From a virus: a stretch of 64,000 nucleotides of DNA. Within the stretch, counting starts at the first letter, position 1. Each line of letters begins with the position of its first letter. The position numbers were made by a program, and so were the translations under genes. The DNA lies in the UHGV virus genome UHGV-0141541; one strand, 5' to 3'. Shown here one piece after another: positions 8,125 to 37,233 of the stretch. The notes under the pieces were generated by a model. That model was not told the origin of the DNA. It ran no database searches and saw only the letters and a list, made by a program, of their open reading frames with translations.

Positions 8125-8185
8125 GAAGCCTGCTTCCGTATATATTTAATAAGTTACTTATTATTTATATATACAGATGCAGGTC
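8125..8185. promoter_or_regulatory. IR-flanked AT-rich element (copy A), upstream of terminase operon
   Basis: GCCTGCTTC ... GATGCAGGTC arms around the AT-rich core TATATATTTAATAAG...TATTTATATATACAGA; near-identical to 37174-37233. Confidence 0.5.
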
Positions 8186-8207
8186 TTTAAATAAGCTCCC
8201 AGACCGA

Positions 8208-8474
8208 TTACATCACCAGTAACTTCGCTTTGGCTCGACCTAAAGTGGTTAACCCAAGAGTTCGGCGGTGATAGCGATTGTCACTGCGTTGGCGCGTATG
8301 CCCTTTCTCCACCAGCCCCTTTTTTATCAGAGCGCGAATTGAGAACTGGATACTTTGCTTGGTTGTCTTGTACGGCAAAACTTCAAGCAATTCGTCCAGG
8401 TCAAGTAGATGACCTCGCTCATAACCGAGATTGAGCGTTTTGATGATGTCCTTTTGTTTATCGGTTAACGTCAT
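8208..8474 (-). CDS. small basic putative winged-helix DNA-binding protein
   Basis: 88 aa, last gene of the ParB/ATPase/GNAT operon; helix-rich basic sequence; fold assignment is a guess. Confidence 0.4.
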   Translation of the reverse strand: MTLTDKQKDIIKTLNLGYERGHLLDLDELLEVLPYKTTKQSIQFSIRALIKKGLVEKGHTRQRSDNRYHRRTLGLTTLGRAKAKLLVM

Positions 8475-8483
8475 GGCAAATCC

Positions 8484-9374
8484 TTATGCCGGTAAAGCAA
8501 TTTCTAACGGTTTATCCAAAGGTTGTTTGTCGAATGCCAGCAGTGGCAGCGTGTCAGGCAGTCGACGGCCAAAGTCAGGGTTTCGGTACACACCATACAA
8601 CGGAGACGTAAAGCTCAGGTTGTGAATGTCCTTGAGCAGCTTCACAATGCTGGCCTCGTCCACCAGACTGTCGGCAATGTCCTGAATCGTCGTGCCACGA
8701 TTCCGCCCAGCTTTTGCCAGGGAACTGTTCTTGTGGTAGTCCGCCACCAGATCACGCAGTGCACGGCGACGACGAGACTCGCTCATTGCGAACAACTCTT
8801 TGACGATCGCCTCGTTATCACCCGGGTCGGAACGGAAATGGCGCTGGAATACACGCAGTGCACTTTCATAGCTCTTCGGTCGCTCAGGGCGGATGAACTT
8901 AAACCCTGCTTTCATGGCGAAGGGATTGTATTTGCTCATCGAGGACTGGATCTCAATGATTGGCCGGTCATGCATCCTGCTAACTAGGTTAATCATTCGA
9001 TAAGAGACGCCTACGCCACGATACTGAGTATCCACAACTGAGCGACTGATCACCGCAAAGTTGTTATTCACGTACCGACCCCAGTACTGGTTAGCCACGG
9101 TGGTATTAGTGGTTGGTTTCAACTTAGGAAACATGCGGTGGCGAGGTGCCAGCAGTAGTTTCGGGTAAGCCATAACCACGACGCCCACCAGACGGTCATC
9201 AAGTTCGCAGCGATAGTAAGTTGGCGCGAAAGGTTTGCCGTCTGTTTTGTAGTGAAGCGACTTAAGAGCGTGCCAGTCCTCTACAGTTCCCTTTGTGACA
9301 GTCATTCGCTCCAGAAAGTCCAGATGACGCGGAAACTCTTCAGGGCGGTAGCGTTTAATGATGATGTCCGTCAT
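8484..9374 (-). CDS. GNAT-family acetyltransferase domain protein with C-terminal extension
   Basis: 296 aa; GNAT motif A-like VDTQYRGVGVSYRMINLV and motif B-like NPFAMKAGFKFI; 4-nt overlap with upstream ATPase gene. Confidence 0.55.
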   Translation of the reverse strand: MTDIIIKRYRPEEFPRHLDFLERMTVTKGTVEDWHALKSLHYKTDGKPFAPTYYRCELDDRLVGVVVMAYPKLLLAPRHRMFPKLKPTTNTTVANQYWGRYVNNNFAVISRSVVDTQYRGVGVSYRMINLVSRMHDRPIIEIQSSMSKYNPFAMKAGFKFIRPERPKSYESALRVFQRHFRSDPGDNEAIVKELFAMSESRRRRALRDLVADYHKNSSLAKAGRNRGTTIQDIADSLVDEASIVKLLKDIHNLSFTSPLYGVYRNPDFGRRLPDTLPLLAFDKQPLDKPLEIALPA

Positions 9375-10036
9375 AAATGAACCTCATCATGACTACCATT
9401 GTGATATTCCACCTTCACGCGTTCTTTGTAGTGCTTGGTGATCTGCATATCCGGGCGCAGCGCGTTCTTCAGGTCTTCGTGAGTCGTCGCCACCATTACC
9501 GTCGCACCAACCTTTCGAGCGGCACGCTGGAGGTTAGATGCCACAACCTGAGCGGTTACACGGTCTAGAACAGCACCGAACTCGTCAGCAGCCCACACTT
9601 TAGCGCCTGACTCAATCAGTTTGGCAATCTTGAGACGATATTTCTGACCGTCTGACATTTCAGAAGGCTTGCGAACAAACAGATATGCATCGTTCAGACC
9701 AGCCATAGATAACAACCCAAGCGCATCGCTGGTCGTTTTGCCCAACTGATCGATGACGTTAACCTCATTATCGAAGGTAAAATCATCGATGGAGGCTACA
9801 GACAGCCCTTCATCCTTCATCTGTCGTTGCAACTCGCGCAGCACAACGGATTTGCCGGAACCGGATTGGCCGGTGATGTACACCACATCGCCCTGCTTCA
9901 CTTCCAGCTCCAGATTGTCGTAAAGCGTCCACTCTTTTTCGTCCAGGCCAAGCCCGAACGACTCAGCGATTTCCAACGTGCGCGTGGTTTTATTTACGCG
10001 TGTCTGAAACGATACGTTGATGATGTATTTGTTCAT
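9371..10036 (-). CDS. ABC-type ATPase (nucleotide-binding domain only)
   Basis: 221 aa; Walker A GQSGSGKS, ABC signature-like SDGQKYR, Walker B VWAADEFG, H-loop TTHE; no transmembrane partner adjacent. Confidence 0.7.
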   Translation of the reverse strand: MNKYIINVSFQTRVNKTTRTLEIAESFGLGLDEKEWTLYDNLELEVKQGDVVYITGQSGSGKSVVLRELQRQMKDEGLSVASIDDFTFDNEVNVIDQLGKTTSDALGLLSMAGLNDAYLFVRKPSEMSDGQKYRLKIAKLIESGAKVWAADEFGAVLDRVTAQVVASNLQRAARKVGATVMVATTHEDLKNALRPDMQITKHYKERVKVEYHNGSHDEVHL

Positions 10037-10734
10037 GCAGCCATCTCCCCGGAAGAGATCTTCTCCGCATATGCCACAAATGCGTCTACCCCGCTTTCTC
10101 CCGTCATTTCTTCCATGTGGGCAAGCAAATCACCAACAACAATGGCAGAGCCAGCAGGAAGCGTTTTAAAGCCCAATACGTCGACAACACGTACTTCTTC
10201 CGCTGCAACTTCACGACTGATCTCGGTGTGTTCATCCTTCTGTCGTTTAGTTTCTTCGCCAAGATCGATAACTAGCGAGTCGGTGTCCATTTCTTCTGTC
10301 ATGCTGCCAACGAGAACATTCAACTCACGCTCTTCAAAGCCGAAAACCTCGATATCGTCCAGAACAAGCGACTCAAGCTCTTTCTGTAGCTTAATTGCAT
10401 CGTAATCAATGCTGGCAAGTCGGTTATCTTCAAGGCGCTTCGCACGAACCTCGTCATCACTGAGATCATCGCGAACAATAACCGGTACGCGCTCAAGTCC
10501 AGCAAAAATTGCAGCCTCACGGCGGCCGTGGCCAGTAATAATTACGTCGTTCTTATCGACCGTAATTGGCTGGTCAAATCCGCGCTTTTTAATGGCTGCG
10601 GCTAGATCTCGGATCTGCTGTTCATCATGCTTTTTGGCATTCATCTCATAGGGAATAAGATCTGCCGGGTCGCGATATACGATTTCTAACTTTTTGGTCA
10701 TTACATACGCTCCTTGTAGTAGTCGACCAGCCAC
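10033..10734 (-). CDS. ParB N-terminal (ParB/Srx-like nuclease) domain protein
   Basis: 233 aa; ParB box ITGHGRREAA; acidic C-terminal half; real start may be MTKKLEIVY at 10702. Confidence 0.7.
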   Translation of the reverse strand: MAGRLLQGAYVMTKKLEIVYRDPADLIPYEMNAKKHDEQQIRDLAAAIKKRGFDQPITVDKNDVIITGHGRREAAIFAGLERVPVIVRDDLSDDEVRAKRLEDNRLASIDYDAIKLQKELESLVLDDIEVFGFEERELNVLVGSMTEEMDTDSLVIDLGEETKRQKDEHTEISREVAAEEVRVVDVLGFKTLPAGSAIVVGDLLAHMEEMTGESGVDAFVAYAEKISSGEMAA

Positions 10735-11399
10735 ACCAGAGCCTCACCAGCGTTCTCCATTTCATTACCGGTGTTAATAGCCTGCTCTTTGATGATGTTT
10801 TTTATGGTTTCTGCAACACGATCTGACGCATCGAAAGTTACTTTGAAGCGCATGGTCTGATGTTCCGCACCCACACGTTCGGTTTTCTCTCGTTTGTCGG
10901 TATCGACAGGCTCATCACTACCACGAGACAACGCCTCCAGTGCTTCAAGGTCGATTGCCGCCTCTTTTGCTAAAACCATCGAGATTTCGTCGTCATACGG
11001 GGCGATTTCAGACAGCTGATAGTCAAGTTCTGACTGAATTTCTTCAATGAAGCGTTGCAATGCGATTTGGTCGTCTTCACCGTATCGCTCGTTGTCCACC
11101 AGTGACATCTGTTTAGCTACGACATCGCTAATTTTGCCCACAGAAAGCACCGGAACCGTTGAAATTCCTTGCTCAATAGCAGCACGCCAGCGATGTTCGC
11201 CGCCGAGGATTTCAAAAAATCCATCTTCAAGTTCACGAGCCAAAATTGGCTTAAAAAAGCCCAATTTTTCGATAGAACCTTTCAGTTTTTCAAAATTCTG
11301 CGCACCAACCGAATTGGTGTTCCAGGTATTCGGGCGAAGGTTGGCAACATCAACCTGCAAAATCGTGATTTTTACATCCATTTTATTGCTACAATCCAC
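10701..11399 (-). CDS. ParB N-terminal domain protein (second copy)
   Basis: 232 aa; ParB box ILGGEHRWRAA; directly upstream of first ParB-like gene; start may be MDVKITI at 11381. Confidence 0.7.
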   Translation of the reverse strand: MDCSNKMDVKITILQVDVANLRPNTWNTNSVGAQNFEKLKGSIEKLGFFKPILARELEDGFFEILGGEHRWRAAIEQGISTVPVLSVGKISDVVAKQMSLVDNERYGEDDQIALQRFIEEIQSELDYQLSEIAPYDDEISMVLAKEAAIDLEALEALSRGSDEPVDTDKREKTERVGAEHQTMRFKVTFDASDRVAETIKNIIKEQAINTGNEMENAGEALVWLVDYYKERM

Positions 11400-11463
11400 T
11401 AAGTAATCACTTACTTATTATAATAGCCAAATAACATACAAAAGGCACTAAGGAAAGAGGTTT

Positions 11464-13023
11464 ATGACTGTTCGGATTGTATCTAACGCAGTTAATGCGC
11501 TTATTTCTGGCGCAGATGACAAGGTAAAGCAAATGGTGCAACAGATGTTGAGCTACGAAGTCGAGACTGGCGACTGGAAGGGCACAAGCACGATGTTCAA
11601 CTGGAGTAAAAACTCGTTCCCTGCTGGCTTTGCCAAGCCTGTAGCGGCGAACTTGAACAAGGCGGGCATCAAATGTGTTCATATCCGCAAAGACAAAACC
11701 CCGGCGCTTGGTAAACCAAATCCTGCGGTTAACCCATTCCCATACAATCCTGATTATGCGTATCAGGATCAGACTGTGGAAACACTGGTTCGAGAGGGAA
11801 TGATGATTGCGCAGATCGCTACTGGTGGCGGGAAATCTAACGTTGCCTGCAAAGCAGCTGCACGTATCGGTCGAATGACATTATTTTTAACAACCCGCTC
11901 TGTTCTGATGTTTCAAATGGCCGAAAACTTCCAGAGATCCATCGACTACCGCGCCGAAAATGGCGAACCGTGGTTAAAAGACCAAAAGGTTGGAGTCATT
12001 GGCTCGGGTGAGTTCCAGGTATCACGACATATCAACGTCGCTACAGTTCAAACTCTTGCAAGTTTCCTCGAAGAACCACCACGCGATGCAACACCAGATA
12101 AGAAAAGCTACCACCTCAAACGTCGGGAGTTGGTGAAACGCTTCCTTTCAAGTGTCTCTCTTCTTATTCTGGAAGAGGCGCATGAGTCTTCAGGCTCAAA
12201 TTTCTATGACATCGCCAGATTATGTGTGAACGCAGACTATCGTCTGGCGCTTACAGCCACGCCGTTCATGAAGGATTCGACGGAAGCCAACATGCGCCTG
12301 ATGGCGGTGGCCGGGCGAATTGAAATTAAAGTCACAGAAAAGTACCTGATTGATCGAGGCATTCTGGCAAAGCCGTACTTCCTTTATCATAAAGTTGCCT
12401 ACAAGCCAGACGAGGCCAGAATCAAGGCCGAACTTGCCAACAAACACCTCAATTTTAGAGTTGGTATGAGCACCGCCTACCAAAAGGCTTATCAGTTGGG
12501 GATCGTGTATAATTTGGGACGTAACGAGGCCATTGTTCGCGAAGCATTGCTCTATAAGCAACATTCTCTCAATTGTATGACTCTGGTTCGTCTTAAACGC
12601 CACGGGCAAATCCTGATGGAAATGATGAAAGAGTCCGGCCTTAGAGTTGACTTCATCTATGGGGAATCTAACCAGGCGACAAGGCAAGCAAAGCTGAACA
12701 GTTTAGCGTCTGGAGAAATAGATGTTTTAATAGGCTCGACTATTCTGGATGTCGGTGTTGATGTGCCAAGCGTTGGTGCGGTCATTCTTGCTGGTGGTGG
12801 GAAAGCAGAAGTTGAAATGAGGCAGCGTGTCGGTCGTGGCTTACGAGCCAAAAAAAATCAGGCAAACGTGTGTTTTATCACTGATTTCATTGACATTAGC
12901 AACAAATACCTGTTGTCTCACTCTTATGAGCGAAAACACATCATCGACACCACACCTGGCTTTGCAGAAGGTGTATTGCCTATTGATGGAGCATTCGATT
13001 TTGGAGTTCTGAAACGAGATTAG
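11464..13023 (+). CDS. superfamily 2 DExH helicase
   Basis: 519 aa; motif I ATGGGKS, motif II LEEAHE, motif III TATP, motif VI QRVGRGLR. Confidence 0.8.
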   Translation: MTVRIVSNAVNALISGADDKVKQMVQQMLSYEVETGDWKGTSTMFNWSKNSFPAGFAKPVAANLNKAGIKCVHIRKDKTPALGKPNPAVNPFPYNPDYAYQDQTVETLVREGMMIAQIATGGGKSNVACKAAARIGRMTLFLTTRSVLMFQMAENFQRSIDYRAENGEPWLKDQKVGVIGSGEFQVSRHINVATVQTLASFLEEPPRDATPDKKSYHLKRRELVKRFLSSVSLLILEEAHESSGSNFYDIARLCVNADYRLALTATPFMKDSTEANMRLMAVAGRIEIKVTEKYLIDRGILAKPYFLYHKVAYKPDEARIKAELANKHLNFRVGMSTAYQKAYQLGIVYNLGRNEAIVREALLYKQHSLNCMTLVRLKRHGQILMEMMKESGLRVDFIYGESNQATRQAKLNSLASGEIDVLIGSTILDVGVDVPSVGAVILAGGGKAEVEMRQRVGRGLRAKKNQANVCFITDFIDISNKYLLSHSYERKHIIDTTPGFAEGVLPIDGAFDFGVLKRD

Positions 13024-13025
13024 TT

Positions 13026-13304
13026 ATGAGCGAAAAGAAAACAACTTATTGTCAGGTAGCATTGTCTGATAAGGCCAATGACAAACTTGGAAAGTTTCAA
13101 GTGAAACTAAAAGAAAAAAATATCAAAATGTCTAAGGCTGAAGTCATAAATACCATTCTGGAACAATTGACAATGGCCGACTTTGACAAGGTTATATCTT
13201 CTGTCGGGGCTTCCGCTAAGACTCGTGAGAAAATCATGCGTATCTATGAGAACTCTAATATGACAAAGGAAGATCTCGAAACGCTATTAAGCAGATTAAA
13301 ATAA
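13026..13304 (+). CDS. hypothetical protein
   Basis: 92 aa ORF immediately after helicase stop; K/E-rich. Confidence 0.5.
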   Translation: MSEKKTTYCQVALSDKANDKLGKFQVKLKEKNIKMSKAEVINTILEQLTMADFDKVISSVGASAKTREKIMRIYENSNMTKEDLETLLSRLK

Positions 13305-13330
13305 TCACGCTATCAATTAGGGAGACAAAG

Positions 13331-13795
13331 ATGAAGTCTCCCATACTGTTCACTTTCTGTTCTAAAACTATCATGAAATACTCGCTTCTCCCTCTACTAA
13401 CGTTACCAGTGTTGATGCTTACCGCGTGCCAATCACGCCCAATATCAATCCATGACGCCAAACCAGCACCGCAGGCCAAAGTGTTCAAGTATCAAAGCGC
13501 AGCGCCAGCTACGTTGGTGGTAATGAGAGACACAGGTTTTGTAGGAGCTGGATGTGATGCTTCCATTTTCATCAACGGCGAAACTGTCGCAAAACTGGCT
13601 ACAGGCGAAAAAGCGACTTTCCATTTAAATGCCGGAGAATTAATTGTGGGTGCATCTCTTGAAGGTGCAGGTTTATGTGCTCTAAACCCCGCTCGTCAAG
13701 AGCGAGAAACGACTCTGAAGAATAGAGACACAAAAGCGTTCAGGGTGTTCACCAGCAATTCTGGTGACATCGACATTCTGCCAACAACTCTGTGA
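13331..13795 (+). CDS. putative lipoprotein
   Basis: 154 aa; RBS GGGAG; signal peptide with lipobox LTAC. Confidence 0.6.
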   Translation: MKSPILFTFCSKTIMKYSLLPLLTLPVLMLTACQSRPISIHDAKPAPQAKVFKYQSAAPATLVVMRDTGFVGAGCDASIFINGETVAKLATGEKATFHLNAGELIVGASLEGAGLCALNPARQERETTLKNRDTKAFRVFTSNSGDIDILPTTL

Positions 13796-13799
13796 TGAC

Positions 13800-14324
13800 A
13801 TGACAACCAAAGATATTACCTACGGTATCCAAGCTGAACTCTGGCCGCGAGATTACACTAACGTTGAAAAACTACTGATGTTCTGGCGCAGAGAACAAAT
13901 TCCTGTAAGGGTCACTCTCGAAGATGGCCAGGCGTTTTGCATGTACGTTTATGGCCTCATGCCATCTCGTAACAAAGTTGACCTTTGCCCAGCCCCTTTT
14001 GACAAAGAAAATCGTATAAGGCTCCCACTTGAACGCATTAGTACAATTGAATCAGGTGTGGTTGACAGTATCGCTCACGATTTCAAAGGTCGACTAACAG
14101 TTCACCCTGATTATGTCGATAATCGGCCATCACGCCGCGATTTTTTTGCAATTTGCAACCAAGCCTACAAAGCAAACAAATCTATAAGGGTGTACATGGC
14201 GGATGGCCGTGAAATTGAGGGGGTGTCAGCAGGCGCAGATGCTTGTCAGGTTACACTACGTGTCGAGAACGGTAGAAAAATAGTTGTTTTGTTCGATTGG
14301 GTTGAACGAATTTTGCCTTTTTGA
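13800..14324 (+). CDS. hypothetical protein
   Basis: ORF track 13764-14324; start moved to MTTKD just after the upstream stop. Confidence 0.5.
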   Translation: MTTKDITYGIQAELWPRDYTNVEKLLMFWRREQIPVRVTLEDGQAFCMYVYGLMPSRNKVDLCPAPFDKENRIRLPLERISTIESGVVDSIAHDFKGRLTVHPDYVDNRPSRRDFFAICNQAYKANKSIRVYMADGREIEGVSAGADACQVTLRVENGRKIVVLFDWVERILPF

Positions 14325-14327
14325 GTT

Positions 14328-14636
14328 ATGAAATCGATATTGTTACCACCATTATTTTTACTTTGCTCAGTTGCGGCAAATGCAATGGACTATAAGCCTG
14401 TCATTCAGTCGCTGATGAATGACGTGTGCTCAACGTCTCAGAATGTATCAGTTTGCATGTATCAATTTTCGGCAGCCGTAAAAGCAGGAAAAGCGATAGG
14501 TGAGAATGTGGAACTGTGTAAGAAAGTGGCAAATGAAGAACGGGCAATGTTGGATTGCGAATCTAGCGAGTCATCGGCACAGTTCGTTGATACGCTATTT
14601 GACACCAATCGTAAGGCTGTAGAGTCTGTTCAATAA
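14328..14636 (+). CDS. small secreted protein (signal peptide)
   Basis: 102 aa; N-terminal hydrophobic signal MKSILLPPLFLLCSVAANA. Confidence 0.5.
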   Translation: MKSILLPPLFLLCSVAANAMDYKPVIQSLMNDVCSTSQNVSVCMYQFSAAVKAGKAIGENVELCKKVANEERAMLDCESSESSAQFVDTLFDTNRKAVESVQ

Positions 14637-14648
14637 ATCTATAAGGTT

Positions 14649-14680
14649 AATAACCGGCTAAGTCCGGTTATTATTTTTCA
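14649..14680 (+). terminator. intrinsic terminator
   Basis: hairpin AACCGG-CTAAGT-CCGGTT followed by T-run ATTATTTTT after the 14328-14636 gene. Confidence 0.5.
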
Positions 14681-14826
14681 TATCACTTCTTTATATCTAC
14701 AAATCAAATAACCTAAATATATATAAGGTCTAAAGCCGCAATCGATTATTTATTTAGGGAACACCTTCGACGATCTCGCTTTTATTTCTAGGACTTTCAT
14801 CCCTGCAAAAAATTTTAAAAAAACAC

Positions 14827-14854
14827 TTGCAATCTTTTTTCGCGTATCGATAAT
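14827..14854 (+). promoter_or_regulatory. sigma70-like promoter of AT-rich cassette
   Basis: TTGCAA - 16 bp - GATAAT about 65 bp upstream of the 14920 start codon; read by eye, not scored. Confidence 0.35.
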
Positions 14855-14919
14855 TGAACTCGTCGAAAGCGAAGACGCTAACGACAATAAATTTTAAATT
14901 TACATAAGGAAAAATTATC

Positions 14920-15570
14920 ATGGCTAACATTATCATTTCTAAAAAGTCCATCATTGAAGCTGCATCTATTGTATCCGACGAGCTGCGCGAAAAAGCAGAT
15001 CTGGCAACTCAAACATATAACGAACATTATAAATATGGTACGCACACTAAAGCAGACAAAGCAAATATGCAAGCTGCGACCACTAAACTTGCTTACTTCA
15101 TCAACAACGTCGTAAACGCAGTAGAAGACGAAAAATTATGCTCTGTTTTCTACTATGCGATTAAAGCAAGCAAACAAGCGCCAGAAGTATTTTTCCGTGA
15201 TGCAATGACTAATAGTTATTCTCTGGAAAAACTGGTTTATCTGGTTAAATCAATTAAATCTGGTAAATGCGTTTATTCCATCGCTGATATGTCAGGATCT
15301 CGTGTATTCGCTTTAATCGATATGATTAACGACGAGATCGACACGTTCACCAATGGCGCTGTTTTCGATTTAATGAATGAAGCTAAAAAAGCGTGTGAAA
15401 TTAAATTGGACGCTGGCTATACTCAAGCCAACCAGTTGATCAATCTTTGCGAACGTCTCGGACTTGTTGAAAAAGTCAAAGGAGCTGGGAGCGCCAAAGC
15501 TGGTACGCAGCAATATCGCTTCATTAAAAATGATTTCTACAATTATTTAGCTGATGCTTTCAAAGCGTAA
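14920..15570 (+). CDS. hypothetical protein (AT-rich accessory cassette gene 1)
   Basis: 216 aa; strong RBS AGGA; markedly AT-rich relative to surrounding genes; no motif recognised. Confidence 0.6.
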   Translation: MANIIISKKSIIEAASIVSDELREKADLATQTYNEHYKYGTHTKADKANMQAATTKLAYFINNVVNAVEDEKLCSVFYYAIKASKQAPEVFFRDAMTNSYSLEKLVYLVKSIKSGKCVYSIADMSGSRVFALIDMINDEIDTFTNGAVFDLMNEAKKACEIKLDAGYTQANQLINLCERLGLVEKVKGAGSAKAGTQQYRFIKNDFYNYLADAFKA

Positions 15571-15583
15571 TTAATGGAATCAA

Positions 15584-15603
15584 GCGCCCACTATGGGCGC
15601 TTT
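15584..15603 (+). terminator. intergenic hairpin (attenuator) within cassette
   Basis: GCGCCCA-CTA-TGGGCGC followed by TTT; the identical 17-mer recurs at 16080. Confidence 0.45.
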
Positions 15604-15618
15604 AAAGGAGCTTTAAAA

Positions 15619-15822: not shown

Positions 15823-15842
15823 TTTTTTTAAGGAGCTTAATC

Positions 15843-29615: not shown

Positions 29616-29833
29616 TCGTCATCCTCATCCGAGTCATCCTCATCACAGGATGAGAGTAGTGGGTTAGTCATTCGCCCTACTTGAGTGGCGTAGCCACGCC
29701 GACAGAGATTGCGCAGCACACTGTATATTTCGAACATCTCGGTTCGTTCATCGCCAACATCAAACTCAGATGCTATAGCGTGGCATTCAGTCGCGAGAGC
29801 CGATATTTTCTGAAATAACTCTGCTTTATTCAC
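29612..29833 (-). CDS. hypothetical small acidic protein
   Basis: 73 aa, 4-nt overlaps with both neighbours. Confidence 0.4.
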   Translation of the reverse strand: MNKAELFQKISALATECHAIASEFDVGDERTEMFEIYSVLRNLCRRGYATQVGRMTNPLLSSCDEDDSDEDDE

Positions 29834-30330
29834 TCTTCGACTCCTTTACGAAGCTGTTCAGCAATACTTACGCATATCTCTGCGCCTCTAATCAGCCCCG
29901 GAACGTTCTTGTTTGGCCCAACTTCACCATCAACAAAATCAATCATCGCGTTACGAGCCATATCCACGCCTTGCGCACGTACTTCAGCCAGAAAAGCATC
30001 GGTGGCTGGAGTCTCCGTTAATTCGCTAACCCAATTATCTCCGTGTTCGTCGGCACACATCTCATCGAATGCTCGCTCAGATTCTTTCAGGGCTGCATTC
30101 TCCGCCGCTAATGCGTCTCTCTGCGCCCGCAACTTCTCAATTTCGGCAGCCATGTAGTAACCAACCATAGCGAAGACGGCAAAAGAGTTGTCTGCCTCAT
30201 CAGGCGACACTGAGGCCATTAGCAGACCATCGTAATAATCGTGACTCCCATTGGTGATCGCCACCGCATAGGAGTCGTGGTTCTCACGCTTGTGAATGAG
30301 AACTACGGGGTTTTCGATTTTGTTACTCAT
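29830..30330 (-). CDS. hypothetical protein
   Basis: 166 aa ORF. Confidence 0.5.
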   Translation of the reverse strand: MSNKIENPVVLIHKRENHDSYAVAITNGSHDYYDGLLMASVSPDEADNSFAVFAMVGYYMAAEIEKLRAQRDALAAENAALKESERAFDEMCADEHGDNWVSELTETPATDAFLAEVRAQGVDMARNAMIDFVDGEVGPNKNVPGLIRGAEICVSIAEQLRKGVEE

Positions 30331-30468
30331 GTGTTTTTCTCTTCTTTGCTGTTACATAAGCACTACCAAGTGCTGGTTTATTTTCACAAATAAGAAAAGG
30401 TAGAAAACAATTTATTTAAGGCCACAACTTATGGCCTTTATTTATTCATGCCGAAGGATTTGTAGCGT

Positions 30469-30849
30469 CTAATTGCCGGATAAAATGGGGTGAGGTGCTT
30501 GCCAGTAGGCTCCACCGGTCCATGTGAACCCCATGCGAATAAGAGTGTTTATTGCGGCTTTGGTAGACTCAGATTCGACACTGGCTTTTCGAAACTCTTG
30601 AACCTCTTTCGCCAACCTGTATGTAATTGTGCAGGGGACGATTGCAGCCCAGCCTTTCTCATGACTGTTAATGACCATCTGGATGTGACCATCCAGAATA
30701 GGTTGATTAGGCATGTTATTGAAAACGTCTGCCTGTTTTTGAATGTGAATAAAAAGCCTTGCCAGCTCCATTTGCTCACTACGAGACAAGGGATTATCAA
30801 GAGGGCTTTTTGCAAAAGCGGCTATACGCTGTGCGTCAATGCCAAACAT
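30469..30849 (-). CDS. hypothetical protein
   Basis: 126 aa ORF; followed by hairpin GGCCATAAGTTGTGGCC. Confidence 0.5.
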   Translation of the reverse strand: MFGIDAQRIAAFAKSPLDNPLSRSEQMELARLFIHIQKQADVFNNMPNQPILDGHIQMVINSHEKGWAAIVPCTITYRLAKEVQEFRKASVESESTKAAINTLIRMGFTWTGGAYWQAPHPILSGN

Positions 30850-31553
30850 CAGCGCACCTCACCATCTTTATGGCTGGAGTTAACTTCCGCCATTAAATGT
30901 CTGACGTAATCGACAAGAGAGCCACCTGGTGGAATCTGGCATTCCTCAACTAACTGGAAGTAGATATCCGCTGCATTACGTGTATTGCTACCCGCACATA
31001 TTCTTTCTTCCCGAAGTGCATGAAGCTCGTTGATCAAACGGTCACACTCTCCGTTACGCTGATCCACAACGGCCTCAAGCTCTGCGACGCATTCACCTGG
31101 CGTCTTACCTTCTTTGCGTTGGATGGTAACGACGAAATCGCCAATTGCAGGGACGTTGTAATCCAGCTCAAGGTAGTTTTTGGCACCGCTGCGGACGAAC
31201 TCACCCGCGAACATGGTGGCGAACATCGCAGAGGCCACTTCGCCGTTGAAAAGTGACTCAAGATCTAACGGAGTCCCGGCAGCAAGAGCCTCTTTTGCTG
31301 TATCCATTGCATCCATGAACCGATCAAACTCACTAGCGCGCTTTTCCATGTCTTTCCATTGCTCGCTCCAACGTTTGGCAACGAAGTCTATGAATGTTTT
31401 CGCGGATTCATCAAAATTCCCCTCAAACTTAACGATGCCTTTATCAATAATGATCTGGCCTACCGCATCCTCTGCATAACCTTTCAATGTAAACTTGAAA
31501 GGAAAATCAGAATGGCCTGTGACGTTAAAATGCTCTAACTGGAGGTTGTTCAT
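30849..31553 (-). CDS. hypothetical protein
   Basis: 234 aa ORF; motif family 2 copy about 45 nt upstream. Confidence 0.5.
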   Translation of the reverse strand: MNNLQLEHFNVTGHSDFPFKFTLKGYAEDAVGQIIIDKGIVKFEGNFDESAKTFIDFVAKRWSEQWKDMEKRASEFDRFMDAMDTAKEALAAGTPLDLESLFNGEVASAMFATMFAGEFVRSGAKNYLELDYNVPAIGDFVVTIQRKEGKTPGECVAELEAVVDQRNGECDRLINELHALREERICAGSNTRNAADIYFQLVEECQIPPGGSLVDYVRHLMAEVNSSHKDGEVR

Positions 31554-31614
31554 GTGTTTTTCTCTTATCGTTTAGTCACTAAATTCTTACACAAATTAAG
31601 TAAGTATTTACCTA

Positions 31615-33300
31615 TCATTTAACGCGTTTGAAAACGTATACGCTGACTGTGATCCCTGTGTCTTCAAACTCGTTGGTAAACGACTTCCCTCTGGCATAAA
31701 CGTAATTATCCATCGTCATCCAGTCCAGTATTGGCGCAGTGCCCGGCAATACTGCTACAAGACGCCCGCCGACTTTCAGATGCCCCAGCGCAGCCATCGT
31801 GTGCTCTCTATGACGACCAAGCGAGTACGGCGGGTTCATAACGATTTTGTCGAACTGATAACCTGCGTTGTCCTCAGACCACTTTATGAAGTCGCAGCAA
31901 ATCGTGTTCGTATACCCTTTTCCACGCAGGATATCAGCGAAGAGAGGTGCGATTTCTATGCAGGTAACATCTTCCAGATCGGCGTTAATATAGGCCAGAA
32001 GATCCCCACGTCCGGCTTGAGGCTCCAGCAGCTTCTCACCAGGCTTCAATTCAGTGGCTCTGGCAACGTACTCAGCAATCAAGCGTGGGGTAGGGTAGAA
32101 CTGGTGTGATTTTGTATCCGGTATTAAACCGGTAGCCACAATCGTATTTAGCGTATGGCCGATGTCATACGGGAACTGCCAGTGCTTTTTCTCCTGCACG
32201 CCGCCAATGAAGCTCAGTGTGCGCTCAAGCTCTTCCACATGCGACTTCTGGAGAGCTAAATCAGAGAAGTACCATACGCCTTTGTCTTTGCTCAATCGCC
32301 CGTCACGAAGCGCAGTGCGAACCGGCACGGAGATCGTCTTCTGGATTAACCCGAACTGCTTTGGTGCCCGTGTTTTTGGGGCAGTTCGGCATGGCGCGGG
32401 GATTGCAGCAGGCATACTGTAAGCCAGCACCTCATTCAACTTCCAGGCCACGTCAGGATGTATTTCAAAGTGAACGTTGCCGTTCTTGAACATCTTCACG
32501 CGCATCAGATTTCCATCGACGTTCATCCAGTCACCGGTCTGGCAGTCGTTTGCCCTATACGCAGCTGATAGCACCTCAGCAGTGCGGTTGATGGTAATAA
32601 ATTCTTTGTGCGCGAAGAAATGAAGCAAGACACGTAGATCGTCGATGTAGTCCTCTTTGCGATAGTTCACGCTAACGCTGTCCCGCCAGAAATCAGAAAT
32701 GCAGTCAGCGATTATCAGCCGCTCGCTGAAACCGTTTGTCTTATTTGTCTTGTGCGCAGGACTCAGCGCCTTAAACAAGCCATACACGCGCTCAGAGAGA
32801 TATTTGTGCCTGTCATTCAGTAAATTAAGCATCGTGGGTATGACCGTTTCTGCTTTGAACTCCGGTACACCAACGAACTCTTTAACCTTCATCTGGTAGC
32901 CGGTTCTGTCAGTTTTGATGACTTCCTGTTTGCCCTCTATAAACTGCTCGCGCCACTCATCTCGACGGGAAGCTGGCATGATCAGCAAAACGTTAGTCAT
33001 GTCCGTGACCTTCCTCCAGTACTCGGCCCAAATATTCTGTTTCACCCATTCCAGATCGACTTTATCCAACCAACCTCGATTTAAACGCGAGCGATCTTCA
33101 TCTGGTCGATGGTTTAGTCTCAGCAGGCGATTAATCATGTTGTGGCGTTCGTCGCCATAAACGAAGTCGTGTACCTGATACATGAAGGCGATCTCTTTCT
33201 CGCACTCGGCCACGATTTCGTGGATGACATTCATTTCCTGACGATAGTCGATAGCCGTGTTTGAGCTGGCATCGTCGATGATGGAAAGGGCTGTATTCAT
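31615..33300 (-). CDS. large protein with C-terminal gamma-class N6-adenine DNA methyltransferase domain
   Basis: 561 aa; motif X QFYPTP, motif I LLEPQAGRGDL, motif IV VMNPPY in the C-terminal ~200 aa; N-terminal ~350 aa unassigned. Confidence 0.7.
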   Translation of the reverse strand: MNTALSIIDDASSNTAIDYRQEMNVIHEIVAECEKEIAFMYQVHDFVYGDERHNMINRLLRLNHRPDEDRSRLNRGWLDKVDLEWVKQNIWAEYWRKVTDMTNVLLIMPASRRDEWREQFIEGKQEVIKTDRTGYQMKVKEFVGVPEFKAETVIPTMLNLLNDRHKYLSERVYGLFKALSPAHKTNKTNGFSERLIIADCISDFWRDSVSVNYRKEDYIDDLRVLLHFFAHKEFITINRTAEVLSAAYRANDCQTGDWMNVDGNLMRVKMFKNGNVHFEIHPDVAWKLNEVLAYSMPAAIPAPCRTAPKTRAPKQFGLIQKTISVPVRTALRDGRLSKDKGVWYFSDLALQKSHVEELERTLSFIGGVQEKKHWQFPYDIGHTLNTIVATGLIPDTKSHQFYPTPRLIAEYVARATELKPGEKLLEPQAGRGDLLAYINADLEDVTCIEIAPLFADILRGKGYTNTICCDFIKWSEDNAGYQFDKIVMNPPYSLGRHREHTMAALGHLKVGGRLVAVLPGTAPILDWMTMDNYVYARGKSFTNEFEDTGITVSVYVFKRVK

Positions 33301-33441
33301 AATTACACCATTAAATAATTTGTTTTCTGATTGGTGTAATTATCGCAAACTTGAAAAGGCATAAAAGCTGCATTCATAGGCGTTACAGCAGATTTAAGGC
33401 GTAAAAATGGGGGCTGTCGCCCCCTGTCGACTGGTGCTGTA

Positions 33442-34008
33442 TTAGAGTGCGTATTGCGTTTTGTGCGGCTGCTTATTCAAGTCATGGCGATGCGTGAGCT
33501 CCCGCATCATGTCTTCAAGGCGACTCTTTGTGTCGTCAAGCTGGTCGGCCATTGCACCTAAAAGCTGGCGAACGGCCATCGGATCGTCGCTGTTTAGTGA
33601 TGGCATTTTATAACCTGCTTTAGAAGACATAAGGTTGATTGCAGACATCAACATCGTTAGAGAGGATTTAAGCCCGGCAATTTCACGATCTTTGCTGGCA
33701 ATAATCGTCTCACTTTTGTTGCCGTCATCAGTTCCTTGAGTCTCGCTCACCATATCCAAAGTCGCTTGCAACTTATCAGCTCTCTCTTTTTCAGCAAGGT
33801 AATGAACACCGAAATGGTGTGCCAAAGCTACAATCTGAGTTGGCTCTTCAAAGGTGGAATTAAAATTAAGTATTGTAAACAGTCTCTCAAATATGGAAAC
33901 GTCTTCTATTCCTCGAAGAATGGCTAACATTTTGACAAGTTCATTAGCATCCATTTCTTCGAATAGGGCGTTTTGTTCATCAGCTATTGCTTTGCATTTC
34001 TCGCACAT
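33442..34008 (-). CDS. hypothetical protein
   Basis: 188 aa ORF preceded by motif family 1 copy at 34027-34058. Confidence 0.5.
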   Translation of the reverse strand: MCEKCKAIADEQNALFEEMDANELVKMLAILRGIEDVSIFERLFTILNFNSTFEEPTQIVALAHHFGVHYLAEKERADKLQATLDMVSETQGTDDGNKSETIIASKDREIAGLKSSLTMLMSAINLMSSKAGYKMPSLNSDDPMAVRQLLGAMADQLDDTKSRLEDMMRELTHRHDLNKQPHKTQYAL

Positions 34009-34305
34009 GTGTTTTCCTTAATGCTTAAACAAGTTGTTTTCTTATTGGCTTTATTGTGATGTGGCATATAAGGGGAGCAAGCTAAACGTAAAGGTGCAAA
34101 CTCTCTATTTCGGTCAACGAAACACAAGGGCCAAATGGCCCTTGTCATTAACACTTTGCTTTACGAACTAACGGATAAGCGAAGTAGATCGCCAAACCAA
34201 TGAGGACGCCATCAGAAATGACAGACATCATCTTTCCCGTAAAATCCACCAACACCGCCATCACCAGAAGAGCAATGACGATCACAAGCCGGAATCTCTC
34301 AAGCA

Positions 34306-34731
34306 TTAGAGATAAGCATCCAGTGACAACTGAAGCGCCTGGGCGATCTTTTTCAGTGCCTGCTCTTCTTGTTCACCAATGCCATCCTGATCGGCAATAT
34401 CAAGGCACAGACACAGAACATCGACCGCCTCTGGAGTACCCGCAATATCAGACAGCTCACGAATAGCCTGTGCATTAGCAGAACGAGGGGACGCTTCGTA
34501 ACGAGCACGGATATTGGCGCTCATTTGGGCAATTTCACCAGCAAACGGAGAAAACGCAGGCAGAGCTGCAATTGTCTTCTCAAGAATGGCAATTTCTTTT
34601 GCGTCACATGTGCCGTCGGCATAGGAGATCATGTACGCGCCCCACACGGTGGCCTCAACCGCATCACGGTTCTCCATTTTTTTGACTTCGATAACTGCTT
34701 TACGAGTTTTCTTTTTGAAGAAACCTAACAT
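34306..34731 (-). CDS. TerB-like domain protein (tentative)
   Basis: 141 aa; helical, ISYADG/EIAILE-type pattern reminiscent of TerB; RBS AAGGA; own upstream motif family 1 copy. Confidence 0.4.
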   Translation of the reverse strand: MLGFFKKKTRKAVIEVKKMENRDAVEATVWGAYMISYADGTCDAKEIAILEKTIAALPAFSPFAGEIAQMSANIRARYEASPRSANAQAIRELSDIAGTPEAVDVLCLCLDIADQDGIGEQEEQALKKIAQALQLSLDAYL

Positions 34732-34824
34732 GTGTTTTCCTTTTGTTATTTGTCAAAACAAGTTGTTTTCTAGTTAAATAAATTGCTTACGCAAAGACGG
34801 TCAATGCATATGCACTAACAACCG

Positions 34825-35013
34825 TCAGAAATAACCAAGTACCGAACCGACTGGAAAAATAAAAATCCCAACTACACGAGCCAAGGTCATGCCAGCCTGA
34901 AACTGGAGATCGCCAGAGCAAACAAGTTTTATAATGTTCGATACCCAACCGGCGGCCATGAGGGCAAGAATTGCCAGCCAAATTTTTCCAAAGTGATTTG
35001 AAAACCAGTTCAT
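34825..35013 (-). CDS. small two-TM membrane protein
   Basis: 62 aa with two hydrophobic segments. Confidence 0.45.
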   Translation of the reverse strand: MNWFSNHFGKIWLAILALMAAGWVSNIIKLVCSGDLQFQAGMTLARVVGIFIFPVGSVLGYF

Positions 35014-35022
35014 ACAACCGCC

Positions 35023-35517
35023 TTAGTCACAGCATGATCCTGAGTAACTGGATGAACTTGAGGTATCGCATCCACCGCCATCCCATCCAGAGTGACAGGA
35101 CGCTCCACTGGAGTGGTGGTAATTGTCGTCGACGAAGGTATGGTGATGGATGAATCCGGCATCAAAAGGCTCTGACCGGCTGGAACGGCTACCGTCGCCA
35201 GTGAAACTATAATGAGAACGTAGGCCATTGGTTTCAGCCTCTTTCTTTGAAAATTTTCCATTCGAACTGTCCTTGTTGTTTTTCTCCTTCACTAAAGGCC
35301 GTGCATTTTTCGCTTCGCGTGAAGAACCAGAGGCAACAATCGCCCCCACGTTCGCAACAACTGACGCTTGATTATCTAAACGTTCATTCAGCAACCGAAC
35401 GGTAGTCTCTAGTTCATCAAGGCGTGACATAACACGACCGCTAAATAATTCGGCCAAAATTTGACGTAAAGAACGAGGACGTTTAGTTACAGAAGTGAAA
35501 TAGGTTTGACGTGCCAT
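35023..35517 (-). CDS. hypothetical protein with coiled-coil N-terminus and S/G/C-rich tail; contains nested alternate-frame ORF
   Basis: 164 aa; nested ORF 35010-35261 encodes a Pro/Thr-rich protein with a signal-like segment. Confidence 0.45.
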   Translation of the reverse strand: MARQTYFTSVTKRPRSLRQILAELFSGRVMSRLDELETTVRLLNERLDNQASVVANVGAIVASGSSREAKNARPLVKEKNNKDSSNGKFSKKEAETNGLRSHYSFTGDGSRSSRSEPFDAGFIHHHTFVDDNYHHSSGASCHSGWDGGGCDTSSSSSYSGSCCD

Positions 35518-35665
35518 GTGGACTCCATCCAGTGTCAGAAAGAGTTGCGGCTGGCGATTGCCAGCCGCCTTTCTCGTTCCATCCTGGAACTGTGTCTTAC
35601 CGACACATTGTCATCCTGACGCCGATAAGATACATGATTTAAAATGATAGGTAAACACTTACTTA

Positions 35666-36256
35666 CTATTTGTTATAAACAAAACCAATATCTTTCTTGT
35701 GAGGCATATCTGCTGCTGAAAAAGCTGCGATCTTCGCGAGTCGATCACATATTTCATTTTCACGATGCCCGGCGTGACCTTTAACCCACTTCCAGCGAAC
35801 ATTATGTCGACTTGCGGCCTCATCCAGACGCTTCCACAGATCAACATTCTTTACCGGTTTTTTGTCAGAAGTCATCCATCCATTGCGTTTCCACCATTTC
35901 ATCCACTGTGTCATGCCGTTTTTCAGATACTGGCTATCAGAGTGCAAAATAACGTTGCATGGATATTTCAAACGCTCCAGCCCGATAAGTGCCCCCATCA
36001 TCTCCATGCGGTTATTGGTGGTGCTATGAAAACCATCTGAGAACTCGCGTTCCTCACCACGATACTGGAGAACGATACCGTAACCGCCCGGGCCACCCGG
36101 ATTTTTAAGGCAAGAGCCATCACTAAAGATTTTCACGGTTTTAAGCTGGGGATTGAACTCTACGACAGGCGTTGTGGGATTGGTGCGGGGAGAATTTTTG
36201 TTTTTGTCTTTTTTGCGAGTTTTTGCTTGCGATCGGGCTGGTGTCTTCGTCGTCAT
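35666..36256 (-). CDS. rnhA: ribonuclease H (RNase HI family) with basic N-terminal extension
   Basis: FSDGSC...GGYG...TNNRMEM...SDSQY...VKNVDLW...VKGHAGH..NE.CD pattern closely matches RNase HI; start set at MTTKTP (RBS AGGAG). Confidence 0.85.
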
Positions 36257-36837
36257 ATAAACTCCTGAATCAAGCGCCGCGCCGATTTTTCCTCGCGCGT
36301 GCGCACACGCGTGCGTGTTAATAATTATTAAAATAAACAAATTACTTCCCAGAACAGGTTTTTATAAACCTGAACTGAACGAACGAAGTGAGTGAAGTTC
36401 ACCTCGAACGAAGTGAGAGGTTGTCTTTTCAGGTAATACTCTCCCAGGGAGGTGAGTATAAAATTCCTCACCAACCTGGTCGTTTCATAACCTGAAAAGC
36501 TATGGTCTAAGTCTACTGCCAGCTTAGACTTGGGAAGTTATGGATGACAGCACCCCAGAACCGAGATCTTCCCACACTTTATGAAGGGGAGTACTGGATT
36601 CAACCTCTCGAAACACCCCAGACTCGACAATCATAAAGTGACCCTTGTCTCTGCTCACTTTGGTTCCCCCTTCCCCGACACCTATACGGCACCGGTTCTA
36701 CGCTGGTAGTGAGCTTTTTTAAACCTGACGCCAGTGACGCTTACCCCCACCCATCAGGTCGAGCCTCCAGTCTACGACTGGAAACTATCAGATCTTAGCA
36801 CTTACAATTCACTTTATGAATAGTTTGTACTTATCTA

Positions 36838-37068
36838 TCATTGTGATTGATTATTTTCTCGACCATGTAGTTGAACATTCAAGGCAAACACCTCATTGAT
36901 CAACTCACCTAAAAGCTGTTCAACAAGTTCGCGATGCTCGCCAAGATGCAAGCACTTAATTGCCCACTCGTACAAGTTGAAAGCCTGCTCACGATCTTTC
37001 ATCATTTCACGAGCCTGGGCCAGAAAATCGCTCTCTACGAGCGCAACGACATTAGTCGGGTATGACAT
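36838..37068 (-). CDS. hypothetical small protein
   Basis: ORF track 36838-37092; likely start MSYPTN; 76 aa. Confidence 0.4.
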   Translation of the reverse strand: MSYPTNVVALVESDFLAQAREMMKDREQAFNLYEWAIKCLHLGEHRELVEQLLGELINEVFALNVQLHGRENNQSQ

Positions 37069-37173
37069 GTTGGTTTCCTTAAAGTGGTTCATAAAATCGA
37101 TTTTAAAGCGTCTGGGAAGGGGGTCTAGTGGATTCTGTAGTGATGTTCAGGTCTGGGAGTCTCTGATACAAAA

Positions 37174-37233
37174 CAGCCTGCTTCCGTATATTAATAATTA
37201 ATATGTAGTTATTTATATATACAGAAGCAGGCT
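37174..37233. promoter_or_regulatory. IR-flanked AT-rich element (copy B)
   Basis: AGCCTGCTTC ... GAAGCAGGCT arms around a ~40-bp AT-rich core; near-identical copy at 8125-8185. Confidence 0.5.

Follow-up and report, generated by a model that had tools for sequence, protein, structure and literature searches.

The window analysed here, 64,000 nucleotides of the virus genome UHGV-0141541, is an SSU5-like phage-plasmid with 99.6% identity to Escherichia phage CMS-2020a; the phage encodes a recombinase. Two intergenic palindromes in this window belong to a family of three copies: sites A and B lie within the window and site C lies outside it, at ~30712–30764 of CP054387. Every copy has the same orientation and is surrounded by minus-strand genes, and each site stands 80–140 nt ahead of a long operon. 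Site A is located immediately upstream of the terminase operon, as a preliminary description of this DNA had recognized, 117–171 nt before the start codon of a terS-like gene, and the packaging/structural operon follows. Site B has dam upstream and precedes a gene encoding an 84-aa protein and the RNase H operon. Site C precedes the replication operon (a gene for a 249-aa protein, then a DnaB-like helicase), and its upstream gene is variable and often divergent, as in L026 and pHCM2.

All three positions recur in relatives. pHCM2 has exactly three copies, in the same A, B and C gene contexts as CMS-2020a and the window, and 100 of 102 instances could be assigned to A, B or C from their flanks. 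Among 260 carrier E. coli genomes, the element occurs at a median of three places each, and 861 of 863 places are plasmid-borne. The site A element is found in all 49 alignable distinct regions upstream of terS-like relatives. Of the 80 loci fetched through dam, 68 carry the site B element downstream of it; two of the 12 loci lacking it are cut by contig ends and the other ten are from more distant relatives. The family consists of nested palindromes specific to SSU5-type phage-plasmids and bordering big operons, a recurring and selected element kept in the clade. A selfish miniature mobile element, MITE- or REP-like, would also be a short repeated unit with inverted-repeat flanks and an AT-rich core, but confinement to three orthologous positions on plasmids makes this scarcely credible, and neither target-site duplications nor empty sites were seen.

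A repeat search aligned copies A and B over a common unit of 57 nt (8127–8183 and 37175–37231), 81% identical without gaps. The two elements 29 kb apart are therefore real and lie where they were first placed, although calling them near-identical was generous, since only 46 of 57 positions agree. A 16-mer, GCCTGCTTCCGTATAT, and a 17-mer, TTATTTATATATACAGA, are each exact at both sites; the chance matches expected with up to three mismatches are 0.36 and 0.22, respectively, and the observed counts were reached in none of 100 shuffles. The design is nested, with outer arms GGTCTGGGAG/CTCCCAGACC enclosing inner arms CCTGYNTCYGTATATA and a self-complementary centre of ~92% AT (Table 1), and at both sites the structure begins 2–3 nt past a stop codon. 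The inverted-repeat arms of 9–10 bp first reported hold for copy B, in which AGCCTGCTTC/GAAGCAGGCT pair perfectly over 10 bp and over 18 bp when one mismatch is allowed, but not fully for copy A, whose right arm, CAGATGCAGGTC, is degenerate, with three mismatches relative to the 16-mer.

Table 1. Positions in the window of the parts of copies A and B.
Feature	Position	Strand	Sequence (sense for parts with a strand) and surroundings
Copy A, extent	8127–8185		
Copy A, inner palindrome	8129–8183	–	CCTGCATCTGTATATA-AT centre-TATATACGGAAGCAGG; flanked by the 88-aa gene (stop, 8208) and the terS-like gene (start, 8012)
Copy A, central mini-palindrome	8148–8162		AATAAGT-T-ACTTATT; read from the sequence, paired in predicted folds
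Copy A, outer 5' arm	8196–8205	–	GGTCTGGGAG; starts 2 nt past the stop codon of the 88-aa gene, pairs with 8108–8114 in the fold
Copy A, outer 3' arm	8108–8114	–	CCAGACC; from sequence and fold
Copy B, extent	37175–37233		
Copy B, inner palindrome	37177–37231	–	CCTGCTTCTGTATATA-AT centre-ATATACGGAAGCAGG; after the dam stop (37255–37257), before the 84-aa gene (start 37092)
Copy B, T-run	37168–37174	–	GTTTTGT; immediately past the stem base
Copy B, outer 5' arm	37243–37251	–	GTTCTGGCG; 3 nt past the dam stop codon; from sequence and fold
Copy B, outer 3' arm	37150–37159	–	CTCCCAGACC; from sequence and fold

From its position, copy A had been proposed as a late-operon promoter, at which packaging/head transcription would start, and the idea could by extension apply to the whole family. 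The distance to the terS-like start and the presence of –10-like hexamers in the AT-rich centre are compatible with this proposal. However, our scan detected no sense-strand sigma-70 site in or beside A or B and a single weak match at C (ATGACC-16-AATAAT, 9/12, reaching into the element, where 1.4 are expected in shuffles), and the genes after B and C are not late genes, making a promoter very unlikely. Between copy A and the terS-like gene stands a different recurrent motif, AAACAAGTTGTTT (about 16 sites), which is a more typical recurrent 5' signal and a better promoter or operator candidate than copy A. We consider it highly improbable that copy A is a packaging site (cos or pac), an idea suggested by the linear GenBank records of SSU5 and Cyrano, which both end at window position 8146/8147, in the centre of copy A and adjoining the terS-like gene. 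Three copies would cut the chromosome, and only A adjoins that gene. IMG/VR contigs break at B and C too (L236, L271, L296 and L309), so these ends have the look of assemblies interrupted by a repeat, and another virion-derived record begins at a gene start. In addition, the TerL protein has matches to Terminase_6N and Terminase_3, which are generally associated with headful packaging rather than with lambda-type cos terminases.

Transcribed from the minus strand, the copies are predicted to fold stably on a GC-containing stem base, with energies between –29.7 and –44.2 kcal/mol and z-scores from –6 to –8; copy A has –44.2 kcal/mol (z = –8.0) and copy B –37.6 kcal/mol (z = –6.0). An RNase III site calls for about two turns of largely uninterrupted dsRNA (20 bp or more), and the predicted inner hairpin has ~26 bp, more with the outer arms. 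The complementarity is kept in relatives. When 17 stem pairs were scored in 32 diverse sequences, pairing was found in 89.3% of cells compared with 85.1 ± 0.7% after shuffling (reached in 0 of 500), and sliding the partners dropped it to 32–46%. Both sides have changed in nine stem pairs where 5.0 ± 1.2 are expected, with compensated variants such as CTTTCG/CGAAAG and CGTCTG/CAGACG, and flank-to-flank pairing exceeds the shuffled control in all 28 distinct site A sequences. In a distant relative, L286, the arms are of another sequence, GCCTTGCTCCCATA/TATGGGAGCAAGGC, yet complementary at 14 of 14 positions, and the outer repeat, CCGCAGTG/CACTGCGG, also differs while staying complementary. Rfam gave no match in the window at the gathering threshold; below it, matches were weak and limited to eukaryotic miRNA-precursor hairpins.

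Pairing is not all that is conserved. At 13 of the 16 arm positions there is almost no variation, in contrast to the diverging flanks, and the variable position 9 shows no covariation within the clade (CC 20, TT 10, TC 32, CT 11); the sequence is therefore selected beyond the need of a plain hairpin. Since conservation is far stronger in the arms than in the sequence around them, a sequence-specific binding partner, as first envisaged, is conceivable. In one form of this idea, a protein of the phage or its host would bind the double-stranded DNA at an operator, a silencer or a partition-type site, comparable to the stoperators of L5, the dispersed centromeres of N15 or the KorB sites of RK2. 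Palindromic half-sites with invariant positions in three dispersed orthologous copies, together with ParB/Srx-family genes ~2–3 kb upstream of site A, would fit such a site, as would the lack of a consistent strand bias when sense and antisense fold energies are compared. G.U pairs are in excess on the sense strand (44:13), which could be a mutational bias. We nevertheless regard a DNA site as unlikely. Within the clade, the arms lie anywhere from 49 to 57 nt apart, and in distant clades ~65–85 bp apart; a loop can absorb such variation, which speaks against a rigid dimeric DNA site. Moreover, the flanking pairs at the stem base covary, the T-run described below is strand-specific, and the element decays in Klebsiella oxytoca where canonical terminators adjoin. 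An IHF consensus is lacking as well: the four matches to WATCAANNNNTTR in the window all lie away from the elements.

The strand-specific feature is a T-run, defined as at least five T in the 8 nt past the sense-strand 3' arm and counted over distinct sequences. It is present on the sense strand in 19 of 28 sequences at site B and 35 of 40 at site C, compared with 0 of 28 and 16 of 40 on the opposite strand, and it is kept while the remaining tail diverges. Site A of the SSU5 clade has no such run on the sense strand (0/31), though its conservation equals that of B and C. In pHCM2, site C is terminator-like in our scan on the sense strand only (three overlapping matches, 0.2 expected). Relatives add to this picture. 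At site A, K. oxytoca and K. michiganensis have long T-runs (T5–T8), and the corresponding position is occupied by an ordinary terminator in relatives from Acinetobacter and Aeromonas. At site B of K. oxytoca, the 3' half of the element alone is left with a canonical terminator adjoining, and at its site C a canonical terminator accompanies a decayed element. Short canonical terminators are also used elsewhere in the phage, for example at 38960–38998. The preliminary description had set a simple terminator aside because the loop seemed too long; the centre is self-complementary, however, and the central mini-palindrome of copy A leaves an effective terminal loop of 3–5 nt. With the T-runs at B and C, the scan of pHCM2 and the plain terminators of distant relatives, that dismissal no longer stands.

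The strand-specific T-run and the replacement by plain terminators would be unexpected if the elements were lytic replication origins, with the AT-only centre as an unwinding element between inverted initiator sites, as in oriS/oriL of HSV or the two origins of SPP1. A centre of this AT content between GC-containing inverted boxes, three copies per ~110-kb genome and the location of site C directly upstream of the replication module recommend the idea. Yet the 249-aa protein has no recognizable initiator domain and the cumulative GC skew of pHCM2 has no inflection at A, B or C, although this skew is dominated by transcription direction and is uninformative at best. Origins are thus quite improbable.

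Our preferred interpretation, to which we give an even chance, is that the elements are sequence-conserved hairpin terminators or insulators, possibly also targets of RNase III or of an antiterminator. The minus-strand transcript of each copy would fold into a long irregular hairpin whose stem has a GC-containing base (CCUGYNUCYG/CRGAAGCAGG), lengthened by covarying flanking pairs, and an AU-rich upper part. At B and C, the U-run directly after this hairpin would make it an intrinsic terminator or insulator between adjoining operons, with site B standing between nucleotide metabolism/dam and RNase H, and site C between the accessory-gene slot and the replication operon. At site A, where the hairpin has no U-run, a role in protecting or processing 3' ends would be likelier than efficient termination. 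Because the outer 3' arm lies downstream of the U-run, the full duplex of ~110 nt would form in read-through transcripts only, where it would suit RNase III, as in the sib/tI element of phage lambda. Several observations sit less easily with termination: site A lacks a T-run in the SSU5 clade although it is equally conserved; the gene upstream of C is often divergent, leaving no obvious transcript there to stop, and no sigma-70-like promoter was found upstream of that site; the arm sequence is kept more strictly than pairing alone would need, and the fold energies have no consistent strand bias; and short canonical terminators exist elsewhere in the phage, against which the elaborate design of these three sites stands out.

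Comparison with known systems places these hairpins close to several classes. Like intrinsic terminators, A and B have a hairpin with a GC-containing stem base right past a stop codon on the transcribed strand, B and C have a U-run after it, and relatives have ordinary terminators in the same places. Unlike intrinsic terminators, the elements have a stem two to three times the usual length that becomes AU-rich in its upper half, an arm sequence shared by the three sites in different host genera and a second inverted repeat enclosing the hairpin; site A has no U-run in the SSU5 clade. The lambda sib/tI retroregulator is a terminator that turns into an RNase III site in read-through transcripts, and the outer 3' arm past the U-run would similarly extend the duplex to ~45 bp in read-through RNA only; the SSU5-type elements differ in having three copies instead of one, no linkage to int and no sequence similarity, and their cleavage is a prediction. 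The RNase III sites of phage T7 also form a set of related intergenic hairpins that share one orientation inside long polycistronic transcripts of the phage, but they have no sequence relation to the present elements, whose processing is likewise predicted, and to our knowledge they lack U-runs. REP/BIME sequences of enterobacteria and the paired DUS/USS terminators of Neisseria and Haemophilus are conserved extragenic palindromes that double as terminators or mRNA stabilizers. Our elements resemble them as sequence-conserved palindromes downstream of genes and differ from them in having three copies at fixed orthologous positions in one phage-plasmid group and an AT-only centre, with no associated transposase or uptake system. 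Finally, lambda nut and HK022 put are clade-specific RNA hairpins that recur in a single orientation before long operons; the elements described here are much larger and are followed by U-runs at B and C, and a cognate factor is only putative.

A tentative and rather unlikely reading would extend the terminator interpretation without excluding it: the three hairpins could be recognition sites for a dedicated termination regulator, a nut-, put- or RAT-like regulon heading three long lytic operons, in which a phage-encoded or RNA polymerase-directed antitermination/termination factor would gate read-through between the plasmid and lytic states. The arm sequence, beyond its pairing, is conserved over sites and hosts, and the arms shift in concert between clades and sites, the 3' arms of K. 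oxytoca being TATAGGAGCCAGGC, TACAGAGCCAGGC and TACAGAGTCAGGC at its three sites and TACGGAAGCAGGC in the SSU5 clade. A long operon follows each site, and a second terminator-like hairpin lies directly before the ribosome-binding site of the terS-like gene. On the other hand, Pfam and PHROG gave no informative match for the small neighbouring proteins, which offer no candidate factor, the window contains no isolated half-sites elsewhere, and gene conversion among the three repeats of this recombinase-encoding phage could also give concerted evolution. If such a regulon did exist, the hairpins would serve as terminators or attenuators, and a putative SSU5-specific factor for antitermination or processing, co-evolving with the arms, would gate the passage from plasmid maintenance to lytic growth, and the read-through RNA might also be cut in the manner of sib.

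Direct reading and a repeat search both found the two inverted-repeat, AT-rich elements, copies A and B, where the preliminary description had placed them. In the repeat search of the window they form one ungapped family of 57 nt with 81% identity; a common 16-mer and a common 17-mer each occur exactly at both sites, and with up to three mismatches the observed counts (chance expectation 0.36 and 0.22 matches, respectively) were reached in 0 of 100 shuffles. The arms of copy B are perfect over 10 bp and extend to 18 bp with one mismatch, and the right arm of copy A has three mismatches. Two properties had been missed: the centre of the element is self-complementary, and around every copy there is a further, outer inverted repeat, GGTCTGGGAG/CTCCCAGACC. 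A search for further copies in the genome returned a third, copy C, in the same orientation but outside the window (see the table). The original observation is thereby confirmed and extended: the element is a nested palindrome, occurs three times and is conserved throughout the phage-plasmid lineage. A and B lie in sequence of the SSU5-like phage-plasmid type: Escherichia phage CMS-2020a, PhiR41_1 and Cyrano (pLF82) are 98-99.6% identical to the regions around them, and Salmonella phage SSU5 and several Klebsiella phages are about 78-88% identical.

Positions of the element copies and of neighbouring sequence features
Feature	Sequence	Position	Remark
Copy A	window	8127-8183	
Copy B	window	37175-37231	
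Copy C	CP054387	about 30712-30764	CMS-2020a
Three copies in pHCM2	pHCM2	36.0, 66.4, 91.2 kb	complete plasmid
Accessory-gene slot at site C	L006	23770-25500	also left flanks of L290-L369
AAACAAGTTGTTT palindrome	window	8053-8065, 8078-8090, 17193, 17957, 18859, 19343, 20540, 22113, 22164, 30405, 33313, 34027, 34756, 44975, 56414	13 bp
GAGCGCATGGACGCGCTC hairpin plus TGTGTGTTTTAG	window	8031-8052	minus strand
TAAGTAAGTACTTACTTA palindromes	window	4602, 11400, 31597, 35648, 37861, 42700, 52096, 57557, 61074	repeat families D10, D11, D15
TAAGTAAGTACTTACTTA palindrome	L006	23609-23630	
AAGAAAGCCTACTTTAAA...TTTAAAGTAGGCTTTTGT palindrome	window	38960-38998	
GTATGCTGTCAGCGGT-type direct repeats	window	53080-54820	repeat families D1, D5, D6

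The complete pHCM2 plasmid of S. Typhi has exactly three copies, an answer obtained both with a profile derived from the element and, independently, with a generic search for any palindrome that has GC arms and an AT-rich centre. With 126 nt around copy A as the query, matches were obtained in 800 plasmid records, which come from Klebsiella, Escherichia, Enterobacter, Yersinia (pMT1), Salmonella, Citrobacter and Cronobacter. Among complete E. coli genomes, 260 of 5,426 are carriers, with a median of three places per carrier genome; 861 of the 863 places are on plasmids, and 100 of the 102 instances found in IMG/VR by an arm 15-mer scan were assigned by their flanks to the three orthologous sites. 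Position and distribution therefore reject a mobile repeat, and the element belongs to a single phage-plasmid lineage, in which its three sites are fixed. When a distant clade was searched with its own arm 15-mer, only homologues of site B appeared, besides about 100 chance matches. Five unrelated IMG/VR contigs (L406, L419, L440, L454 and L465), which came up by chance in a scan with a distant relative's arm, have in common a hairpin of about 105 nt, GCCTTGCTCCCATATCG...GGGAGCGAGGC, with TAAATGCTCG ahead of it.

The genes flanking A and B are all on the minus strand, so the minus strand is the mRNA sense. Site A follows an 88-aa gene that closes the ParB/Srx-ABC ATPase cluster, and 3' of it come a terS-like DNA-binding protein, TerL and a roughly 28-kb structural operon. 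Site B has dam upstream, with an 84-aa gene and RNase H downstream, and site C lies ahead of the replication module (a 249-aa protein and a DnaB-like helicase). Upstream, site C is flanked by a hypervariable slot for accessory genes, which was seen in at least 12 contexts, including a KAP-family NTPase in CMS-2020a and a divergent gene in pHCM2 and L026; the junction of the slot often coincides exactly with the palindrome's 5' arm. Read 5' to 3' in the sense direction, a stop codon (2-3 nt before the outer arm at A and B) is followed by the first outer arm, a spacer of 12-27 nt, the inner arm CCTG(C/T)(T/A/G)TC(C/T)GTATATA, a partly palindromic centre of about 92% AT, the inner arm TATATAC(G/A)GAAGCAGG, a spacer of 12-20 nt and the second outer arm. 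The minus-strand RNA hairpins predicted for the three copies have energies of -44.2, -37.6 and -29.7 kcal/mol (z = -8.0, -6.0 and -6.1), and flank-to-flank pairing exceeded the shuffled control in 28/28 distinct sequences at A, 27/29 at B and 28/39 at C. Rfam, at gathering and permissive thresholds, returned no family for the element. The window also holds a second palindrome family, TAAGTAAGTACTTACTTA, of which at least one copy, that in L006, is situated just 5' of a ribosome-binding site; copies A and C have a centre, AATAAGTNACTTATT, that looks like a compacted version of this palindrome.

A protein-binding site was one of the two functions first proposed for the element. Within the clade the two arms are 49 to 57 nt apart, and in distant clades the distance varies more, which favours a single-stranded hairpin, because a loop tolerates variable spacing and a protein dimer on two duplex half-sites does not. 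A T-run follows the sense-strand 3' arm in 19/28 distinct sequences at B and 35/40 at C, against 0/28 and 16/40 on the other strand, and it is kept while the remaining tail varies (ctgttttgt, ctttttaag, cttttcctt, tcttttaaaag, tctttttctat and others). Site A has a T-run in 0/31 sequences within the SSU5 clade; the K. oxytoca and K. michiganensis site A has the element plus T5-T8 runs, and Acinetobacter and Aeromonas relatives have plain terminators at this position. In K. oxytoca, site B keeps the 3' half alone, adjoined by a canonical terminator, and at site C a canonical terminator accompanies an element of poor complementarity. In pHCM2 the centre is fully palindromic, and by consensus scan site C of this plasmid is terminator-like on the sense strand only. 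Fold energy shows no consistent bias between sense and antisense, and G.U pairs are in excess on the sense strand (44:13), which may be mutational bias. Variable spacing and the strand-specific T-run thus disfavour a double-stranded DNA protein site and, together with the positional equivalence to ordinary terminators, speak for a hairpin formed by the sense transcript as a single strand. Neither element of the window has a match to the IHF consensus. A short canonical terminator-like palindrome, AAGAAAGCCTACTTTAAA...TTTAAAGTAGGCTTTTGT, indicates that the phage uses ordinary terminators as well.

Homologues were collected by searches with flanking proteins, so that sampling was unbiased towards the arms; a contig search with the terS-like protein gave 4 loci only. 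The inner arms of these homologues hardly vary, with changes at positions 5, 6, 8 and 9 only, and the adjoining spacers diverge freely. Position 9, the main variable position, shows no covariation within the clade (CC 20, TT 10, TC 32, CT 11). Compensated arm variants do occur (CTTTCG/CGAAAG and CGTCTG/CAGACG), and three stem-extending pairs below the conserved arms covary among AU, GC, GU and CG. Across 32 diverse sequences, the paired share of stem cells is 89.3%, compared with 85.1 +/- 0.7 in shuffles (0/500 reach the observed value) and with 32-46% once the partners are slid, and 9 of 17 pairs are changed on both sides (5.0 +/- 1.2 expected; 1/500 shuffles). In the distant relative L286, whose dam is 61% identical, different arms complementary at 14/14 positions, GCCTTGCTCCCATA/TATGGGAGCAAGGC, flank a 55-nt AT-rich centre, and the outer repeat, CCGCAGTG/CACTGCGG, is likewise different yet complementary; L287 and L371 resemble it. 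As judged from these comparisons, the palindromic structure has been preserved, and in the SSU5 clade so has its sequence. A plain terminator does not explain why the arm sequence is conserved across sites and hosts and changes in concert between clades; these properties suggest either that the three repeats undergo gene conversion or that a specific factor is involved, for instance an antiterminator or a processing protein. Pfam and PHROG searches of the neighbouring small proteins were uninformative and gave no candidate factor.

The other function first proposed, a late-operon promoter at copy A, is not supported. Neither A nor B has a sigma-70-type site in the sense direction, the single match at site C is at chance level, scans upstream of the divergent site C contexts likewise gave nothing beyond chance, and the genes that follow B and C are not late genes. 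A signal that looks more like a promoter or operator is the palindrome AAACAAGTTGTTT, which has 33 matches in the window (about 16 sites, both strands counted) against 3.2 expected; two of its copies lie in the interval from A to the terS-like gene, at 41 and 66 nt upstream of the ATG at 8012. Where checked, it lies about 25-50 nt 5' of a minus-strand start codon, as with the copy at 34756, which precedes the ATG at 34731 by about 25 nt, and it is likely a phage operator, promoter or translational-operator motif. The terS-like ribosome-binding site is preceded, at a distance of 10 nt, by a terminator-like hairpin, GAGCGCATGGACGCGCTC plus TGTGTGTTTTAG, which is kept in essentially all 49 aligned relatives, a few with single stem changes; in L163 and L164 the stem has changed from GCGC/GCGC to GCAC/GTGC, a compensatory substitution. 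An analogous hairpin, with a T8 run, is present in an Acinetobacter relative. The hairpin before the terS-like gene may be a leader attenuator of the late operon.

The records of SSU5 (NC_018843; L003 and L004) and Cyrano (OV696614) are opened inside the loop of copy A, which suggested a cos site. We reject this reading: the genome has three copies, TerL is of the Terminase_6N/Terminase_3 (T4-like/PBSX) type, IMG/VR contigs also break in or next to B and C (L236, L271, L296 and L309), and another phage record starts at a gene start. The SSU5 and Cyrano ends are most simply assembly breaks at the repeat. In the literature searched, neither the element nor the termini of SSU5 were found described. 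The anatomy is also compatible with a replication origin, a reading that gained no positive support; GC skew is featureless and uninformative as an origin test. Elsewhere in the window, direct-repeat arrays of the GTATGCTGTCAGCGGT type are presumably the iterons of the plasmid replication origin.

The best-supported reading, in which we have moderate confidence, is that the three sites form a family of sequence-conserved hairpin terminators or insulators. Sites B and C would act as such between operons, and site A, which has no U-run in the SSU5 clade, would more likely be a 3'-end-protecting or processing hairpin. Because the 3' outer arm comes after the U-run, the full extended duplex would form only in read-through transcripts, where it would suit RNase III. 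A duplex offered to RNase III only by read-through RNA is the logic of lambda sib/tI, and it is in this respect that the element may be likened to it. A dedicated factor that reads the three sites is a possibility: if arm conservation reflects such a factor, the element would belong to a new antitermination or processing circuit, and if not, the three sites would merely be unusually elaborate terminators.

SSU5-type phage-plasmids are widespread, including pHCM2 in S. Typhi, pMT1 in Y. pestis, pLF82/Cyrano and many Klebsiella and Enterobacter plasmids, and to our knowledge their gene regulation is essentially unstudied. The three-copy hairpin would define their transcription units and explain why assemblies and database records tend to break there. 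A conserved hairpin at each major operon border would also offer a handle on how about 100 kb of lytic genes are silenced and partitioned in the plasmid state.
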